From the NCBI GenBank assembly GCA_021162685.1, contig JAGGYF010000041.1, forward strand, positions 1 to 26,519: DNA of 26,519 nucleotides. Direction: 5' to 3'. Shown piece by piece: positions 19,030 to 25,545 of the stretch (positions are counted from its first letter, which is position 1; every line of letters starts with the position of its first letter). The stretch is from Candidatus Iainarchaeum sp. (GTDB lineage Archaea; B1Sed10-29; WALL01). Below the pieces are notes generated by a model that saw nothing but the letters and a program-made list of their open reading frames with translations, ran no database searches and was not told where the DNA came from. Both the position numbers and the translations under genes were made by a program.

Positions 19030-19764
19030 ATGAATGATGTAGTAATAGAAGCAAAGAACCTAAAAAAATACTACAAGATGGGTGAAACAATAGTAAAGGC
19101 ACTACGAGGAGCCAATATCAAAATAAAAAAGGGAAGTTTTGTCTTCATTGTTGGCCCATCTGGAAGCGGTAAATCCACACTTATGCATCTTCTTGGCGCA
19201 TTGGACCATCCAACAGGCGGCTCTGTAAAGATGGATGGGAAGGAAATAAGTAAAATGGATGACTGGGAACTCTCAATGATAAGGAGAAACAAGGTTGGTT
19301 TTATTTTCCAAACATTTAATTTGGTTCCATCACTGACTGCATTGGATAATGTTAAACTACCACTGCTTACAGACAAGAGGATAAGTGATGAAGAATTAAC
19401 CGCCAGGGCAATAAAATTACTAAAAGTTGTTGGTTTGGGTCATAGGATTTACCATACGCCAAATGAATTAAGTGGTGGGGAAAGACAGAGGGTTGCAATT
19501 GCACGTGCGCTAATAAATAATCCGGAGATCATTCTAGCAGATGAGCCAACAGGCGAGCTTGACTCAAAAACAGGTGCAGAAATATTTGAACTTATGAGAA
19601 AAATGAACAAAGAGGAAGGGAAAACGTTCATAATTGTTACGCATGACACAGAATATATAAAACATAATGACACTGTATATCACATAAAAGATGGAGTAAT
19701 CAAAGAAACGAGCAAAAGAGAGCTTGAGAAAAATGGTATGAAGGGGAAAAAAGAGATTACATAA
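19030..19764 (+). CDS. LolD/MacB-type ABC transporter ATP-binding protein
   Basis: GPSGSGKST, GFIFQTFNL, LSGGERQRVAIARAL, ILADEPTGELD, IVTHD. Confidence 0.97.
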   Translation: MNDVVIEAKNLKKYYKMGETIVKALRGANIKIKKGSFVFIVGPSGSGKSTLMHLLGALDHPTGGSVKMDGKEISKMDDWELSMIRRNKVGFIFQTFNLVPSLTALDNVKLPLLTDKRISDEELTARAIKLLKVVGLGHRIYHTPNELSGGERQRVAIARALINNPEIILADEPTGELDSKTGAEIFELMRKMNKEEGKTFIIVTHDTEYIKHNDTVYHIKDGVIKETSKRELEKNGMKGKKEIT

Positions 19765-20266
19765 GTGACTCTATCTCATCTGCGAGTTGTTTTATCCTTT
19801 TCAATACTGGGCTGTTTTTCCCAAGTTTTCTCTCAAATTTTTTCAGGGTCTCATCAATGCTCACAACCTTATTTCCCATAACGATATTGTCTGCATGTGC
19901 TATAATCTTTTCCTCAATAGTTACTGGAACCATATCTCTTTCTGGCAATCCCAACTGTTTTGCCTCTTCTGCAGTTATCCCTGCTCCTATATGTCTCTCG
20001 GCGACATCAGCGAACTTTGGGAGACCACGCGCTCGTAGTATCTCTGCTCCTATTACACCATGGTCAATGCCATGTGACCTGCTCCTTCCTATGTCATGAA
20101 GCAGTGCTGCTATCCTGACAAAATCTACATCAACGTTAATACCATTTGGTAGTATGTGATTTGCAATCCTAACTGCCTCTCTTGCAACTGTTTTTGAATG
20201 CTCAATAACATTCTCTGGAACGCCTTCTTCCCTGAGAATAAGAAGTGCTTCATCCTCTGTTATCAT
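19757..20266 (-). CDS. HD-domain phosphohydrolase (TIGR00295-like)
   Basis: VIEHS, ALLHDIGRS..HG..HG..GAEIL, AERHIGAGIT, EEKIIAHADN. Coupled to tfe by an ATGA overlap. Confidence 0.9.
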   Translation of the reverse strand: MITEDEALLILREEGVPENVIEHSKTVAREAVRIANHILPNGINVDVDFVRIAALLHDIGRSRSHGIDHGVIGAEILRARGLPKFADVAERHIGAGITAEEAKQLGLPERDMVPVTIEEKIIAHADNIVMGNKVVSIDETLKKFERKLGKNSPVLKRIKQLADEIESLM

Positions 20267-20871
20267 TTTTTCCCCTTTCTACGTGCCTTCTTCTTAGTTG
20301 TCTTCTTTTTCTTTGTGGTCTTCTTCTTTGCCTTCTTCTTAGTTGTTTTCTTTTTCTTCTTTGGTTTCAGTCGCTCTATTAGTTCCTCTATCTCCTTAAT
20401 ATCCTGCACAACTTCTTTGATTGCAGATTTGTTATCAATAATCCTTAATTCTCCACCACAATCAGGACACTTAAAATCATATTCAACAGCAAGCTCAAAC
20501 GGCAACTTCTCGCATTTATTGTCACATTCATAGAATACATAACTAGATTCGTAATCCAACTTGTCCCTGAGTTCATCAAGTTTTTGTATAAGGTGGTTCC
20601 TAACGATCTCTGCTATCTTATCGCTCCTTGCATACCATGTATATGTATACCAATTTGTCTTTTGGTTCTTCTCCCTATCGTATGCAACAAGTCCTATATA
20701 GTGTAGTTGATTAAGAACAGAACGAACAGTATTGAGTTTCAGCTTTGTCCTCTCAGATATCTTCTCATCAATAACTGGCTTTTGGCATGCCTCTAATACA
20801 GCAACACCATTCTTGCCAACAATCTCTTCAAGAAACCTGCGGATTTGTCTGCTAGATATTTTAATTGCCAT
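20263..20871 (-). CDS. tfe: Transcription factor E (TFE/TFIIE-alpha) with Lys-rich C-terminal tail
   Basis: wHTH DEKISERTKLKLNTVRSVLNQL, NWYTYTW, Zn ribbon FYEC...FELAVEYDFKCPDCGGEL..IDN, followed by a KKKKKTTKKKA tail. Confidence 0.93.
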   Translation of the reverse strand: MAIKISSRQIRRFLEEIVGKNGVAVLEACQKPVIDEKISERTKLKLNTVRSVLNQLHYIGLVAYDREKNQKTNWYTYTWYARSDKIAEIVRNHLIQKLDELRDKLDYESSYVFYECDNKCEKLPFELAVEYDFKCPDCGGELRIIDNKSAIKEVVQDIKEIEELIERLKPKKKKKTTKKKAKKKTTKKKKTTKKKARRKGKK

Positions 20872-20965
20872 TGCTCATAATTTTGTTTAGAGAAGTATAT
20901 TAAGATATTGTCAAGGGAATATGTTAAATATTTATATTATCTAATGCATAAAAATACTCTCTGTT

Positions 20966-21071
20966 GGGCCTGTAGCTCAGTCTGCTTTCGGTCATTAAGA
21001 CTGAATGCCTGAAATGGCAGAGCACGAGGCTCTTAACCTCGGTGTCGCGGGTTCAAATCCCGTCAGGCCCT
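20966..21071 (+). tRNA. tRNA-Lys(CTT) with 32-nt D-loop intron (20983-21014)
   Basis: Acceptor GGGCCTG/CAGGCCC, anticodon arm CGAGG-CTCTTAA-CCTCG, T arm GCGGG-TTCAAAT-CCCGT. Removing 20983-21014 restores D arm GCTC-AGTCTGGCA-GAGC. Confidence 0.92.
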
Positions 21072-21074
21072 TAT

Positions 21075-21185
21075 GCGCCTGTAGTCTAGTCTGGTTAGGA
21101 CTCAAGCTTGCCAAACAAAAAGCCTCTGAGACACAGAGGAAGATGCAAAGAGCTTGCGGCCCGGGTTCAAATCCCGGCAGGCGCA
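21075..21185 (+). tRNA. tRNA-Gly(GCC) with 37-nt canonical 37/38 intron (21114-21150)
   Basis: Acceptor GCGCCTG/CAGGCGC-A, anticodon arm CAAGC-TTGCCA|A-GCTTG, BHB central helix TTGC/GCAA, intron hairpin CCTCTG/CAGAGG. Confidence 0.93.
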
Positions 21186-21223: not shown

Positions 21224-22855
21224 ATGAAAAATGTTGTTATTCTCCTGTTGCTGTTAGCAGGTATTTGTTCAGCACAGGGTTTCCAGGTGAGTAACGTAGG
21301 ATATGCAAACATAACAATGGTGATCTCTGGTGAAGCTTCAAAAGACCAAATAGTTTATGTGCCAGCAACAGACTCCAGACAAACTGTTGAATTTCCAAAA
21401 GGATTAGATATAAAAAAGGACGAGTATGGGAATAATTACATCATAGTAAATGGTCCATATTCCTACACTTTTAAGATAAGAGTTAATGGGATGAGACCAA
21501 TCATTACAAGGGACCAATCATTCCCAATAAGTGAGAAGAGGCTTGAGGAATACCTCAGGGACAGCAACTATGTTGTTGTTAGTGACCCTGACACACAGAA
21601 GTGGGCCAGAAGCATAACATCAAGATCAGGAAGTGTGCTTGAGGCAATGACAGACCTCATGCTCTGGGTTAATTCATACGCCACATACGACCAAAACTAT
21701 GGCGGTTCTCTACTATCAAGCAAAGAGGTTTTGAAAACGAGAAAGGGATGGTGTGGAGAATTCTCAAATCTCTATACAGCAATGGCTCGCTATCTGAACA
21801 TACCTACAAGGATAACCACTGGGATGATATATACTGGTTCAAGATGGGTGAGACATGGGTGGGCAGAGAGTTATGTGAATGGAGCATGGGTGCCAGTTGA
21901 TGGAACATATGGTGAGATCGGCCATATAAACGCCCTCCACGTGAAATTATATTCTGCACCAACCTATCTATTCTACTTGCTCCCAGACACAGTAGAAAGA
22001 ATAACAATAACTGACTTTGAGGTGGCACCATATGACCCACCCATAGAAGTGGAAGCAAATCTCTCCTCTGAAGTCGTTGCTCCAAGGAGTATATTTTATC
22101 TAAGGATGAATGTAACAAATAAAGGAAAGAGTATATTTATGCCAACATACTACGCACAAAAAACTGTTGGCATAGAACTTGTTGATGAATTCAGGAAAAG
22201 TGTTATACTGCACCCAAATGAAACAAAACAACTTGAGTGGAAATTTATAGCGCCGTTTGGAGAACGTGACAAGTACTATGTTATGCTTGGTGGTCCTGGT
22301 GTTGAGATGAAATTTCCGCTCATTGTTGATCCGAATGCAAAAGCAGAATTGGAGGAAGGATTTGATATCTCTGGAGTATTCAATCACATAGAAGGGAATG
22401 AGTTGGTCATAGAGTTCACAGTTGAAAACACAGGTAATAGAAATCTTAGAGACGTTGTAGTTAGTGTAATAACTGATAGACTTGGTACCCAGCAGAGAAC
22501 AATTGAATTAAGAGTTGGTGAGAAAAAACATATGTCGTTCAAATATCCTGTGAGCGAGGGAGTATACTCATTTGAGATACGCGTGGAAAAAGACGGTAAA
22601 ATAAAGAACAGTTTTGGCACTGCAATAGTGCCAAAAACAGAGGCAAAACCAGAGGAAAGTTTATTAAACTCAATAATTAAATATCTATACCTGAACGCGC
22701 CTACACTCTTCCTCATATTTGTAATTGGTGTGGCTGGTGTTGTCCTTCTGATATTATTTGTACCAACAATAGAGGGACCCAAAACGCCGTTTGGAGAAAA
22801 GGAGGAGTGGGAAAAACTATTAAAACTAGAAAAGAAAAAAGAAGAGCGGCCATAG
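21224..22855 (+). CDS. Secreted, membrane-anchored transglutaminase-like (Cys-His-Asp) protein with Ig/CARDB domains
   Basis: Signal peptide, GWCGEFSNLYTAMARYLNIPTRITTG, RHGWAESY, WVPVDGT, VENTGNRNL CARDB-like unit, C-terminal TM. Confidence 0.9.
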   Translation: MKNVVILLLLLAGICSAQGFQVSNVGYANITMVISGEASKDQIVYVPATDSRQTVEFPKGLDIKKDEYGNNYIIVNGPYSYTFKIRVNGMRPIITRDQSFPISEKRLEEYLRDSNYVVVSDPDTQKWARSITSRSGSVLEAMTDLMLWVNSYATYDQNYGGSLLSSKEVLKTRKGWCGEFSNLYTAMARYLNIPTRITTGMIYTGSRWVRHGWAESYVNGAWVPVDGTYGEIGHINALHVKLYSAPTYLFYLLPDTVERITITDFEVAPYDPPIEVEANLSSEVVAPRSIFYLRMNVTNKGKSIFMPTYYAQKTVGIELVDEFRKSVILHPNETKQLEWKFIAPFGERDKYYVMLGGPGVEMKFPLIVDPNAKAELEEGFDISGVFNHIEGNELVIEFTVENTGNRNLRDVVVSVITDRLGTQQRTIELRVGEKKHMSFKYPVSEGVYSFEIRVEKDGKIKNSFGTAIVPKTEAKPEESLLNSIIKYLYLNAPTLFLIFVIGVAGVVLLILFVPTIEGPKTPFGEKEEWEKLLKLEKKKEERP

Positions 22856-22919
22856 TCTAGTCTGGTTAGGACAGTGGCCTTCCAAGCCACTGACCCGGGT
22901 TCAAATCCCGGTGGCCGCA
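22846..22919 (+). tRNA. tRNA-Gly(TCC)
   Basis: Acceptor GCGGCCA/TGGCCGC-A, anticodon arm GTGGC-CTTCCAA-GCCAC, T arm CCGGG-TTCAAAT-CCCGG. Confidence 0.96.
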
Positions 22920-22925
22920 TATGTT

Positions 22926-22999
22926 GAGGCGGTAGCTCAGCCCGGGAGAGCGCCAGGCTGAAGACCTGGGTGTCGGGGGTTCGAATCCCTCCCGCCTCA
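22926..22999 (+). tRNA. tRNA-Phe(GAA)
   Basis: Acceptor GAGGCGG/CCGCCTC-A, anticodon arm CCAGG-CTGAAGA-CCTGG, T loop TTCGAAT. Confidence 0.95.
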
Positions 23000-23022
23000 C
23001 TTCTTGTTCTCAAAAGATTATA

Positions 23023-23036
23023 GAAAACTTTAAATA
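23023..23036 (+). promoter_or_regulatory. BRE-TATA promoter for the Lys-rich micro-gene
   Basis: GAAAAC-TTTAAATA matches the archaeal BRE/TATA consensus and lies about 70 nt upstream of GTG 23105. Confidence 0.6.
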
Positions 23037-23104
23037 CCCAAAGGGTTTAATTTGGTTTAGTTCTTTTGTTGAACGTGCGGAACAAGAAATGGGAGGTGAA
23101 TGTT

Positions 23105-23221
23105 GTGCCGGCAAGGAAGAAAAAGAAGACAACTAAGAAGAAGAAAGCAACAAAGAAGAAGACAAAGAAGAAGACCACAAAGAAAAAGAAGACAACTAAG
23201 AAGAAGAAAAGGAAGAAGTGA
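23105..23221 (+). CDS. Unannotated 38-aa Lys/Thr-rich basic peptide (histone H1-tail/protamine-like composition)
   Basis: SD GGAGGTGA, GTG start, MPARKKKKTTKKKKATKKKTKKKTTKKKKTTKKKKRKK* (24 K + 2 R). Upstream TATA and downstream hairpin. Confidence 0.85.
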   Translation: MPARKKKKTTKKKKATKKKTKKKTTKKKKTTKKKKRKK

Positions 23222-23232
23222 GAATCCTCATA

Positions 23233-23256
23233 AGCCGGTCGCATGAGTGACCGGCT
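23233..23256. terminator. GC-rich hairpin between convergent genes (terminator or 3' stability element)
   Basis: AGCCGGTCGC-ATGA-GTGACCGGCT, a 10-bp stem with one G-U pair. Confidence 0.6.
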
Positions 23257-23257
23257 G

Positions 23258-23608
23258 CTATTTATTTATGAGCATATACAACCCTGCCAGAAGTATTAAT
23301 AACAGCAGAACAGCAAATGCCAGAAAAAGCGCCTTTTCCACTGTTTTCTCCTGTTTTTTCATCTTTTTCTCAACAGTGGTTGCAACAGCCCTACCCTGCT
23401 CCACATCCCTTCTTATGCTTGCGCCAAATTGTTTTGAGAGTATATCCTCATCTACATGGGTCTTCTTTTTACCCTTTTTGATGTTTGATATCTCCCTTGC
23501 AATCTCTTGCGCTGAATAGCCCTTGTCCATAAAGTATTGCATAATCTGAGATTCGCTTATTCCCTTATCCATGAACGTCCTAAGTGTTTCCTTATCGCTT
23601 TCATCCAT
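23258..23608 (-). CDS. Hypothetical tail-anchored protein
   Basis: Likely start MDESDK (GGTG upstream). N-terminal KGISESQIMQYFMDKGYSAQEI motif and C-terminal TM. Confidence 0.7.
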   Translation of the reverse strand: MDESDKETLRTFMDKGISESQIMQYFMDKGYSAQEIAREISNIKKGKKKTHVDEDILSKQFGASIRRDVEQGRAVATTVEKKMKKQEKTVEKALFLAFAVLLLLILLAGLYMLINK

Positions 23609-23616
23609 CAAAACAC

Positions 23617-24201
23617 CTATGTGCATTTGAATCCGTCTGGTAACGTGTTCTCGCTAGTTACTACATATGTTTTTCCCTTCTCAAAATTACCAACACAAAC
23701 AATCTGTTTCTCCCATCCTGGGTATATCGTAACCTTTGGTGTGCATGTTGCTCCATCAACACTAAACTCTGATTCTGGTAATGTCGTACCCTCCATGTTC
23801 TTTATGCCAAGCACCACCTCATTATTAGAGCATGAGATAACTCTTACAGCAATGCCCCATTTCACTGTTGGTTTTGATATGTCCTGTAATGCTTGCCAAG
23901 CTGTTGGTCCAAACCATGCTACAACACTGATAATAATTCCCACCAGACAGATTATAAGTATGACCATGGGTAACGACGTATGGAACCTTCTCCTTTTCAC
24001 CATTGGTATGACGATGTCTCTCTGCGGTATCTCCTCTTTTTTCTTCTTTGGCATATTTTTTATGGTCTCCTCTGCATTCAATATCTCTTCCTTTATCTCA
24101 TTACGGGAATAGCCGAGAACCCTAAATATCTTTATGATCTTCTCATCTGGTTCTCCTCTTATCTTCATGTCAACAATACGTTTTCTGTCCTTTGGGTCCA
24201 T
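23617..24201 (-). CDS. Hypothetical single-pass membrane protein with Cys-containing beta-rich C-terminal domain
   Basis: Likely start MDPKDRK at 24201, since the longer ORF overlaps serS and its promoter. Motif RGEPDEKIIKIFRVLGYSRNEI, central TM, four Cys downstream. Confidence 0.7.
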   Translation of the reverse strand: MDPKDRKRIVDMKIRGEPDEKIIKIFRVLGYSRNEIKEEILNAEETIKNMPKKKKEEIPQRDIVIPMVKRRRFHTSLPMVILIICLVGIIISVVAWFGPTAWQALQDISKPTVKWGIAVRVISCSNNEVVLGIKNMEGTTLPESEFSVDGATCTPKVTIYPGWEKQIVCVGNFEKGKTYVVTSENTLPDGFKCT

Positions 24202-24276
24202 ATATCTAAAACTATGTGCTCTCTGTTTAAAAATATAACATTTTATATAAAGGCATGAATAATATATGGGGGTAAC

Positions 24277-25545
24277 ATGCTTGACATAAAAATGATAAGG
24301 GAGCACCCTGAGATTGTTTCCAATGACCTAAAAAAGAGGGGTCTCACTACAGAGCTACTTGACAAAGTTATTGATATGGACAAGAAATGGAGAGAGTACG
24401 TAAAAAAGAGGGATGAACTAAAACATAGAAAAAATGTTGTGACATCTGAAATTGCTGATATGAAAAAAAGGGGGGAAGATGCAACCAAAGAGATAAATGA
24501 GATGAAAGAAATAAACAGGAAGATTGAAGAGATTGATAAAAAAACAAAAGAACTGCTTAGAGAAAGGGATACATTGCTGATGAGGATCCCAAATATACTA
24601 CATGATAGCGTGCCAATAGGTAGGGATGATAAGGATAACGTTGAGATCAGAAGATGGGGGAAGCCAAAACAATTCACATTTGAAGTAAGAAATCATGGAG
24701 AGCTTGCTGAGTCGCTTGGTGTTGGAGATTGGGAGCATGCAGCAAAAATCGCTGGCGCTGGTTTTGTGTACCTAAAAGGGGCGCTTGCTCTACTTGACCA
24801 GGCACTTATACAATTTGCCATTCATGAACTCATCAAGAAACACTACACCCCCGTCTTCCCTCCATTCATGATGAGGAGGAAACCCTATGAGGGTGTAACA
24901 GACCTAGAAGATTTTGAGAACGTTATGTACAAAATAGAGGATGAGGATTTGTACATGATCGCGACATCAGAGCATCCTTTGGTAGCAATGTTTATGAATG
25001 AAGTCATAGCAGAGGAATCACTACCAATAAAGATGTGTGGTATCTCAGCAAACTTCAGAAAGGAAATTGGTTCACATGGAGTTGACACAAAAGGGTTGTT
25101 TAGAATGCATCAGTTCAACAAGGTTGAACAGATTATTCTATCAAAACCAGAAGAGTCATGGGAATATCATGAAGAACTAATAAAAAACGCAGAGGAGATA
25201 TTCCAAAAACTTGAACTTCCATATAGAGTAGTGAACGTCTGTACAGGGGATATAGGCACTGTTGCAGCTAAAAAATATGATTTAGAGGTGTGGTCGCCAA
25301 GACAGAATAGATATATTGAAGCGGTCTCTTGTTCTAACTGCACAGACTACCAAGCCAGAAGATTGAACATAAAGTATGGAAAGAGGGGTGGAGAAACAAA
25401 CCTTGTCCATACATTGAACAGCACTGCTATAGCAACATCAAGGGCAATGGTCGCAATTCTTGAGAACTTCCAAAATGAGGATGGAACTGTAACCATACCT
25501 AAGGCATTAAGGCCGTATATGCATGGCATAGATGTGATAAAATGA
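24277..25545 (+). CDS. serS: Serine--tRNA ligase (bacterial/standard type)
   Basis: MLDIKMIRE, IPNILHDSVPIG, LYMIATSEHPL, FRKEIGSHGVDTKGLFRMHQFNKVEQ, SCSNCTDYQARRL, HTLNSTAIATSR. Confidence 0.98.
   Translation: MLDIKMIREHPEIVSNDLKKRGLTTELLDKVIDMDKKWREYVKKRDELKHRKNVVTSEIADMKKRGEDATKEINEMKEINRKIEEIDKKTKELLRERDTLLMRIPNILHDSVPIGRDDKDNVEIRRWGKPKQFTFEVRNHGELAESLGVGDWEHAAKIAGAGFVYLKGALALLDQALIQFAIHELIKKHYTPVFPPFMMRRKPYEGVTDLEDFENVMYKIEDEDLYMIATSEHPLVAMFMNEVIAEESLPIKMCGISANFRKEIGSHGVDTKGLFRMHQFNKVEQIILSKPEESWEYHEELIKNAEEIFQKLELPYRVVNVCTGDIGTVAAKKYDLEVWSPRQNRYIEAVSCSNCTDYQARRLNIKYGKRGGETNLVHTLNSTAIATSRAMVAILENFQNEDGTVTIPKALRPYMHGIDVIK

Follow-up and report, generated by a model that had tools for sequence, protein, structure and literature searches.

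We describe a basic C-terminal tail on the transcription initiation factor TFE (subunit alpha) encoded by a contig of Candidatus Iainarchaeum sp. (assembly GCA_021162685.1, contig JAGGYF010000041.1; hereafter the window, meaning the whole stretch of 26,519 nucleotides (nt) that was analysed). The tail is rich in lysine (K) and threonine (T), and its DNA is identical over 44 nt to part of a K/T micro-gene of 38 codons. The explanation we favour, at a probability of roughly 55%, is that an older basic tail was recently overwritten by K/T sequence of the micro-gene type via ectopic gene conversion, and that the tail may serve as an electrostatic DNA anchor. The elements concerned are as follows, with the basis of each call in brackets.

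20263..20871, minus strand: TFE alpha gene, 202 amino acids plus stop (open reading frame (ORF); Pfam, NCBIfam and solved-structure matches).
20266..20364, minus strand: 33-residue K/T tail of TFE, PKKKKKTTKKKAKKKTTKKKKTTKKKARRKGKK, with 21 K and 2 R (ORF translation).
20287..20330, minus strand: TFE-tail copy of the 44-nt stretch, comprising 14 complete codons, KKKTTKKKKTTKKK, and 2 further bases (exact match).
23163..23206, plus strand: micro-gene copy of the 44-nt stretch (exact match).
23105..23221, plus strand: K/T micro-gene with a GTG start, 38 amino acids MPARKKKKTTKKKKATKKKTKKKTTKKKKTTKKKKRKK plus stop (ORF, promoter word and Shine-Dalgarno (SD) site).

A preliminary description of the window had claimed that the two copies are identical and form an inverted repeat about 2.9 kb apart. 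The identity is exact at the positions listed; the two arms have opposite orientations and are separated by 2,832 nt. Even when as many as 3 mismatches were tolerated, the 44-mer matched just twice in the window, and two matches were seen in 0 of 100 dinucleotide shuffles; a search of the whole genome (45 contigs, 1.11 Mb, 39.6% GC) returned no further copy. The likeness also extends beyond the 44 nt. An ungapped inverted repeat spanning both copies is 109 nt long and 81% complementary, and when the complete tail is aligned with gaps to the 3' part of the micro-gene, 82 of 93 bases are identical, with one 9-nt gap, through the shared TGA. Codon bias, raised earlier as a possible source of the match, does not reach it: an identity of 44 nt arose in 0 of 20,000 independent codon shuffles (maximum 32, mean 16). 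Given the same peptide, the chance of all 14 codons agreeing was 7e-4 with the codon usage of the tracts and 3.5e-5 with that of the genome.

For comparison we used 13 genomes of the order, the source genome (G000) being one of them. Between genomes, 18 K-rich tracts from seven genomes shared at most 24 nt exactly (median 13; 0 of 132 pairs longer), and two species of one genus had just 29 nt in common in orthologous extensions. Within genomes, 3 of 22 pairs shared at least 44 nt. The longest of these identities lies in genome G010, between the N-terminal extension of transcription factor TFB and that genome's own micro-gene:

L071, 904-2403 (G010:C34; L045/L071): TFB ORF of G010.
L058, 1492-1662 (G010:C84): micro-gene of G010.

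These two share 84 nt exactly, with identity dropping sharply on both sides, and the stretch was 100% identical at those two places only when five genomes were searched. The extension is about 200 residues long, basic and then acidic, and such extensions are present in all four genomes of the family (f3), so that the pre-existence of the recipient is clear in this case; the eight other complete TFBs of the order, that of the source genome included, have no such extension. The third case is a pair of micro-gene paralogues in G007 (C3, L023, and C16, L025), which are identical over 64 nt, with 22 nt for the orthologue from the same genus (G012:C32), and this points to concerted evolution among the micro-genes of that genome. 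Judged from sequence comparison, the overall pattern of within-genome identity is that which intragenomic gene conversion between AAG-rich tracts would predict.

The protein bearing the tail in the window is otherwise an ordinary TFE alpha. Its domains, and its junction with the HD-domain gene downstream, are listed here.

20545..20832, minus strand: winged-helix domain of TFE, residues 14-109 (Pfam match; coordinates computed from the ORF).
20455..20526, minus strand: Zn ribbon of TFE, C116, C120, C135 and C138 with G139 (invariant alignment columns).
20365..20439, minus strand: C-terminal helix region of TFE, approximately residues 145-169 (C-termini of relatives and alignment; the helix is inferred from alignment to solved TFE).
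20263..20266, minus strand: ATGA, shared by the stop of TFE (TGA) and the start of the HD gene (ATG) (ORFs).
19757-20266, minus strand: HD-domain gene downstream of TFE (Pfam HD domain, 5.8e-17).

Pfam PF02002 (TFIIE_alpha) matched residues 14-109 with an E-value of 2.3e-18 and 66.4 bits against a cut-off of 22.9, and NCBIfam NF004910 ('transcription initiation factor E subunit alpha') matched residues 6-172 with an E-value of 1.7e-42. Two scores fell under their curated cut-offs, 144.7 bits for NF004910 (equivalog cut-off 180) and 130.2 for TIGR00373 (cut-off 149.5); by sequence this is divergence of a DPANN protein, other families scoring nowhere near. Solved TFE structures were matched at 3.5e-42 (6kf4_G, profile positions 6-167, corresponding to residues 5-168 of its 185-residue chain) and 5.3e-41 (6pln_A), and the four Zn-ribbon cysteines are invariant across 19 aligned TFEs. 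A single TFE match was found in the genome. The protein is thus canonical through residue 169, and the tail, which we assume from its composition to be disordered, lies beyond the end of every TFE profile. The C-terminal end reads KPKKKKKTTKKKAKKKTTKKKKTTKKKARRKGKK; the DNA of the tail contains a 45-nt direct repeat (20284-20313 against 20329-20358, 97%) and interposes 99 nt by comparison with relatives while retaining the ATGA overlap with the HD gene.

All five TFEs from the same family are tail-less, ending in LMKQLK or similar, with the HD gene starting 0-9 nt on or overlapping the stop. The closest TFEs in large sequence libraries are P0001 (250 amino acids, 64% identity) and P0019 (203 amino acids), available as proteins only; both carry tails rich in K, P and A that start from the same LKP junction. 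A tree of 23 TFE cores groups the window TFE with P0001 and P0019 in one clade, supported at 98/93. As this clade has tails at one junction, the most economical history is an ancestral basic tail with K/T sequence acquired later; the order of events was therefore probably a basic tail first, later overwritten by sequence of the micro-gene type.

To place this tail among other TFEs, a profile search was made (1,173 hits at E-values up to 0.001) and the 150 best representatives were taken; the last CxxCG was recognisable in 107, the other 43 being dropped by the regular expression. With a basic tail defined as at least 20 residues, at least 35% K+R and a net charge of at least +8, such tails were present on 34 of these 107 representatives, mostly from low-GC lineages, and on 5 of 18 near homologues of the window TFE. 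The expectation that archaeal TFE ends soon after the Zn ribbon and following helix thus holds for most archaeal TFEs, with the qualification that among those of DPANN a polybasic C-terminal tail is common. Within the order, tails were found on TFE in three genomes, and K/T micro-genes were present in all three.

The micro-gene of the window has the appearance of a complete transcription unit.

22846..23000, plus strand: tRNA-Gly(TCC) and tRNA-Phe(GAA), shortly before the micro-gene (tRNA calls).
23020..23037, plus strand: promoter word ATAGAAAACTTTAAATAC, resembling a B recognition element (BRE) and TATA box, about 68 nt before the start codon (sequence reading; putative promoter).
23092..23099, plus strand: SD site GGAGGTGA, 5 nt before the GTG (sequence reading).
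23233..23256, plus strand: terminator-like hairpin with 10 base pairs, 7 of them G-C, ahead of a T-rich run (sequence).

Its own TATA-like word, SD site, GTG start and terminator hairpin, together with orthologues that have the same promoter word, argue that it is a real, self-contained gene predating the exchange. The micro-protein matched no Pfam family, no NCBIfam family at E-values up to 1 and none of the H1- or Hc-type models of either collection, and a word-index homology search with the 51-residue micro-gene ORF gave 3,270 candidates with common words, none scoring. Across both K/T tracts of the window AAG makes up 36 of 45 lysine codons, compared with 45% in the genome's long ORFs. A published study reports that runs of AAA reduce protein output more strongly than runs of AAG do (PMC4363877), and on that account the bias fits selection for translatable polylysine. 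Three other relationships were considered and rejected: derivation of the micro-gene from the TFE tail, since its promoter word and N-terminus are common to the micro-gene of G004; a lysine leader peptide regulating the next gene, as that gene is on the opposite strand with the terminator between and the contexts of orthologues are unrelated; and RNA pairing of the two copies, as both mRNAs have the same sense of the repeat.

An HMMER-based peptide search missed known micro-genes of G007 and G012, so degenerate DNA patterns were used instead to follow the family across the order. Clusters matching a degenerate pattern for KKKTTKKK were found in 7 of the 13 genomes, although in G009 a reverse-pattern control also matched. 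Stand-alone micro-ORFs of 38-103 residues are present in G004, G007 (two), G009, G010, G011 and G012. The upstream word atagaaaaGTTT(TT)aaata is common to five micro-ORFs (that of the window and those of G004, G010, G012 and G007:C16), and the orthologue in G004, MPAKKKKTTKKK, a genome of the same family as the window, has the same promoter word and the same MPA-KKKK N-terminus. An SD-like GGAGGT or GAGGTG precedes 10 of 10 micro-ORFs examined; T-rich sequence follows nine of them, and the tenth (C33_A) has the next micro-ORF within about 30 nt. AAG is the commoner lysine codon in nine of the ten, the exception being that of G009 (27 AAG, 32 AAA). The micro-genes of the order are non-syntenic among themselves: the syntenic gap after tRNA-Gly and tRNA-Phe holds no micro-gene in G002, G003 and G005 of the same family, none was found in the slot of the source genome where family f3 has an MVTKKK gene, and none adjoined TFE among 51 metagenome loci, a set outside which the P0001 contig lies.

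The source genome also encodes two tandem basic micro-ORFs at C33:4034-4522 (L139), each with an SD-like site and a TTG start. The first, of 44 residues, reads MATRRRTTKKKTT...RRTRRR; the second, of 72 residues, has a short N-terminus without repeats (ASKVTLSLTTKEATTLKRIIKK) and then a K/R/A tract, likewise ends in RRTRRR and has no Pfam match.

Taken together, these data suggest the following sequence of events. A basic tail would already have been present on the TFE of the sub-clade, and ectopic recombination (gene conversion) seeded by AAG-rich repeats would recently have overwritten it with K/T sequence, leaving a 44-nt identical core within about 90% identity over the whole tail. Neither the reading frame nor the ATGA shared with the HD gene would have been disrupted by the exchange, and the tail DNA would now be a paralogue of the micro-gene 2.8 kb away in inverted orientation. 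The micro-gene type is the putative donor, since K/T is the composition of the family in other genomes and the sister tails are K/P/A. In other genomes of the order, a TFB extension and a micro-gene, and likewise two micro-gene paralogues, may have exchanged sequence in this way. The preliminary description had proposed either a peptide module copied onto TFE or gene conversion between the copies, which appears to be the right class of explanation, the identity being above that expected from codon bias; conversion of an older tail is favoured because P0001 and P0019, in one clade with the window TFE, have basic tails of other composition at the same junction. As to function, both the TFE tail and the free peptide would be expected to bind nucleic acid electrostatically. 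With a charge of +23 directly after the C-terminal helix, the tail could provide TFE with extra, non-specific contacts to DNA close to the opened promoter, as an anchor that raises the local concentration of TFE or helps to hold the promoter open, in a lineage without TFE beta. No TFE beta family matched above cut-off in the source genome, which is 98% complete, whereas the Sulfolobus control was matched, and part of a review (PMC7289017) likewise gives TFE beta as absent from DPANN.

Several observations weigh against this explanation. Under a first-order codon Markov model trained on both tracts, a lenient null, an identity of 44 nt was reached in 7 of 20,000 runs. A micro-gene from another family (G007:C16) agrees with the 44-mer at 41 of 44 positions, so that the shared peptide and AAG/ACA bias alone give about 93% identity, and recent common descent is needed, on sequence grounds, solely for the last step from about 93% to 100%. 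The step that posits an older tail is parsimony over three sequences, and the alternative may be three independent tail gains or one recent fusion in the lineage of the window TFE. Exchange with the micro-gene is not seen at every tail, with those on the TFEs of G007 and G011 sharing 9-14 nt with their own micro-genes and two K-rich extensions in G002, on half-size TATA-binding protein (TBP) and on a PPDK-like protein, sharing only 15 nt, while G004 has a micro-gene and a tail-less TFE. The assembly is backed only indirectly, by the 127-nt overlaps described below and the independent tails of P0001 and P0019. Finally, base composition matters: a TFE tail charge of at least +8 was found at 9 of 21 loci with a GC content of at most 0.412 and at 1 of 26 above it (Spearman -0.40; 47 distinct complete TFE ORFs with DNA, in which relatives are non-independent and L123 and L124 are near-duplicates), and K-rich extensions in relatives also occur on a phosphoenolpyruvate (PEP)-utilising enzyme and a DnaG-like protein.

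The low-GC trend and the extensions on these other proteins are what would be expected if the tail had no function, AT-biased mutation and slippage expanding AAR codons at tolerant protein ends with conversion as a by-product. We regard this as the strongest competitor, if clearly the less probable account. It would fit the source genome, with its GC content of 39.6% against 51-56% at the locus in the tail-less family relatives, and tail sequences that are unconserved between close relatives. Low GC favours tails and does not suffice for them, however, since 12 of the 21 low-GC loci are tail-less; AAG is strongly preferred to AAA despite an AT-rich genome; a charged tail has been retained at one junction in three diverged TFEs; and basal factors have been hit repeatedly (TFE in 34 of 107 representatives, TFB in four of four genomes of one family and half-TBP in two genomes).

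The wider distribution of K-rich extensions bears on both accounts. In the source genome they are also present on ribosomal proteins S19e, L35Ae, uS2 and uS12, which, with those on the PEP-utilising enzyme and the DnaG-like protein, weakens any specificity for transcription. The PEP-utilising-enzyme-like protein of G002 (L156, contig C9, ORF to 1656) was recognised from a PPDK/PEP synthase motif, GGMTSHAAVVARG; its tail of about 130 residues is rich in K, A, T and V and is encoded at a locus of 62% GC, so that polybasic tails also occur outside AT-rich DNA and on proteins that do not bind nucleic acids. In G002 (L172, C15) and G005 (L157, C1) one half-TBP has a polybasic N-terminal extension of about 130 residues. 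Half-size, single-repeat TBP genes are themselves a feature of the order, with Pfam TBP matches in 12 of 13 genomes, nearly all in frames of about 90-125 residues; those of the source genome are:

C20:20720-21022: half-TBP gene.
C14:13279-13566: half-TBP gene.

A 476-residue coiled-coil-like protein of the source genome with no Pfam match (C44:13542-14987, L138) ends in ...KKKDKTKKKTTKKGKKSTKKKGRKRR; its DNA has at most 16 nt in common with other K-rich tracts.

A recent one-step fusion would place a near-whole micro-gene ORF (codon 2 to stop) on a tail-less TFE, the tails of P0001 and P0019 being independent. Here the alignment of the tail with the last 31 micro-gene codons through the stop, at 82 of 93 bases, is what would be expected, and the tail and the micro-gene both start with Pro and then Lys. 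Same-family relatives have neither tail nor micro-gene at the syntenic positions, so that one local duplication-inversion could explain both, and basic TFE tails have in any case arisen many times. That the three closest TFEs form one clade with tails all starting from the same LKP junction argues against such a fusion, as does the exchange in G010, which went into an extension pre-existing in all four genomes of its family. We consider a fusion unlikely, and conversion of an older tail the more probable of the two.

Broader functional schemes fare worse. It is doubtful that the micro-proteins and the K-rich extensions on TFE, TFB and half-TBP make up one polyelectrolyte system, in which micro-genes would be donor cassettes pasted by recombination and the factors would co-partition with peptide-coated DNA, a primitive means, in the manner of linker histones, by which the initiation machinery would be concentrated on the chromosome. 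Marginally more doubtful still is a matched tag: the preliminary description had suggested that a shared basic tag targets TFE to peptide-coated chromatin or condensates, and conversion would then keep tail and free peptide matched. A tag would fit the peptide identities between micro-protein and factor, which concern a different basal factor in each of two independent genomes, and the presence of micro-genes in all three genomes of the order with tailed TFE. Polylysine binds any polyanion, however, which makes sequence matching unneeded, and the TFE tails of G007 and G011 are unmatched to their own micro-genes. The source genome encodes ordinary chromatin proteins, namely two histones and a single Alba, none of which has a basic tail; peptides need not be the basis of its chromatin, and the micro-proteins would supplement rather than replace these proteins. 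Generic charge or mutational bias is also the simpler explanation, given the extensions on ribosomal proteins and the PEP-utilising enzyme and the low-GC trend.

An artefact, with one copy mis-assembled or polished from the other, or chance through codon bias in low-complexity DNA, is very improbable: although this metagenome-assembled genome has strain-like duplicate contigs (C39/C40) and the 41/44 identity with a distant micro-gene reveals strong compositional convergence, both are countered by the codon simulations and between-genome controls, by two intact, in-frame ORFs with unique flanks, by the same signature in two other independent assemblies, and by many contig ends that overlap other contigs by exactly 127 nt, from which an assembly k-mer of 127, far above 44, would follow.

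In the source genome 142 internal regions of at least 40 nt are exactly repeated, among them short dispersed elements as well as tandem repeats within genes that resemble those of surface proteins; contigs C39 and C40 have many identical segments and may be strain variants.

The neighbourhood of both copies is otherwise conserved in relatives, in the order ABC-HD-TFE-tRNAs-transglutaminase-tRNAs-(micro-gene)-p122-p229-SerRS. The HD gene lies directly 3' of TFE across the order, by ATGA overlap or at a distance of 1-9 nt, and the junction is tight in nine relatives; TFE and HD look like a conserved pair that is probably translationally coupled. Between TFE and the micro-gene, a 111-nt tRNA at 21075-21185 was called by Rfam and missed by ARAGORN, and probably contains an intron; repeat families D4, D6 and D8 suggest an extra tRNA-like gene at about 20962-21074, called by neither program. 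Adjacent to the micro-gene are unannotated membrane-anchored proteins of 122 and 229 residues (23258-23626 and 23617-24306, both minus strand), with a short 'GYS..EI' helix motif near each N-terminus and homologues at the same place in relatives; neither has a credible Pfam or NCBIfam match.

The eukaryotic initiation machinery has its minimal model in archaeal TFE, TFB and TBP, proteins that are mostly portrayed as compact and folded. By the counts given here, a third of the nearest TFE representatives are polybasic-tailed, one family has TFB extensions and two relatives have a half-TBP extension. Full-text literature searches, supplements aside, found no description of polybasic tails on archaeal TFE or TFB or of K/T micro-proteins in DPANN, and polybasic tails on core transcription factors of DPANN are apparently a wider habit that has gone undescribed. 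The window may provide a dated example of how disordered regions are made or renewed, by recombination with a micro-gene that has the look of high expression and encodes polylysine. If the tails matter for DNA binding, they would offer reduced genomes without TFE beta a cheap route to tune initiation; if they do not, they would clearly exemplify how composition can drive disordered tails to grow on essential proteins.

Compared with known systems, the window TFE has the same winged helix, four-cysteine Zn ribbon and C-terminal helix as canonical archaeal TFE alpha (Thermococcus 6kf4_G and 6pln_A; winged helix 1q1h_A; NF004910), and differs in the 33 extra K/T residues after the helix and in having no TFE beta partner. 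Lysine-rich disordered DNA-binding segments are known from the C-terminal domain of linker histone H1, chlamydial Hc1 and Hc2 and the tail of mycobacterial HupB. The tail and the micro-protein resemble these as lysine-rich low-complexity segments, appended or free-standing, that presumably act electrostatically; unlike them, they are of K/T rather than K/A/P composition, and the host is a basal transcription factor. In eukaryotes the basic C-terminal region of TFIIE beta is thought to contact DNA near the opened promoter; it is likewise a basic segment on factor E, but on the other subunit and non-homologous, so that the comparison would be a functional analogy only. Ectopic gene conversion and concerted evolution of dispersed repeats occur in prokaryotes. 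Long exact identity within a genome, diverged orthologues and, in G010, sharp tract edges are shared with such cases; the differences are that the sequences involved belong to a micro-gene and to disordered extensions on unrelated proteins, and that the seed is low-complexity AAG-rich coding DNA. Polybasic disordered DNA-binding tails and ectopic gene conversion are thus both of known kinds, and the interest of the present case is their recurrence on basal transcription factors.

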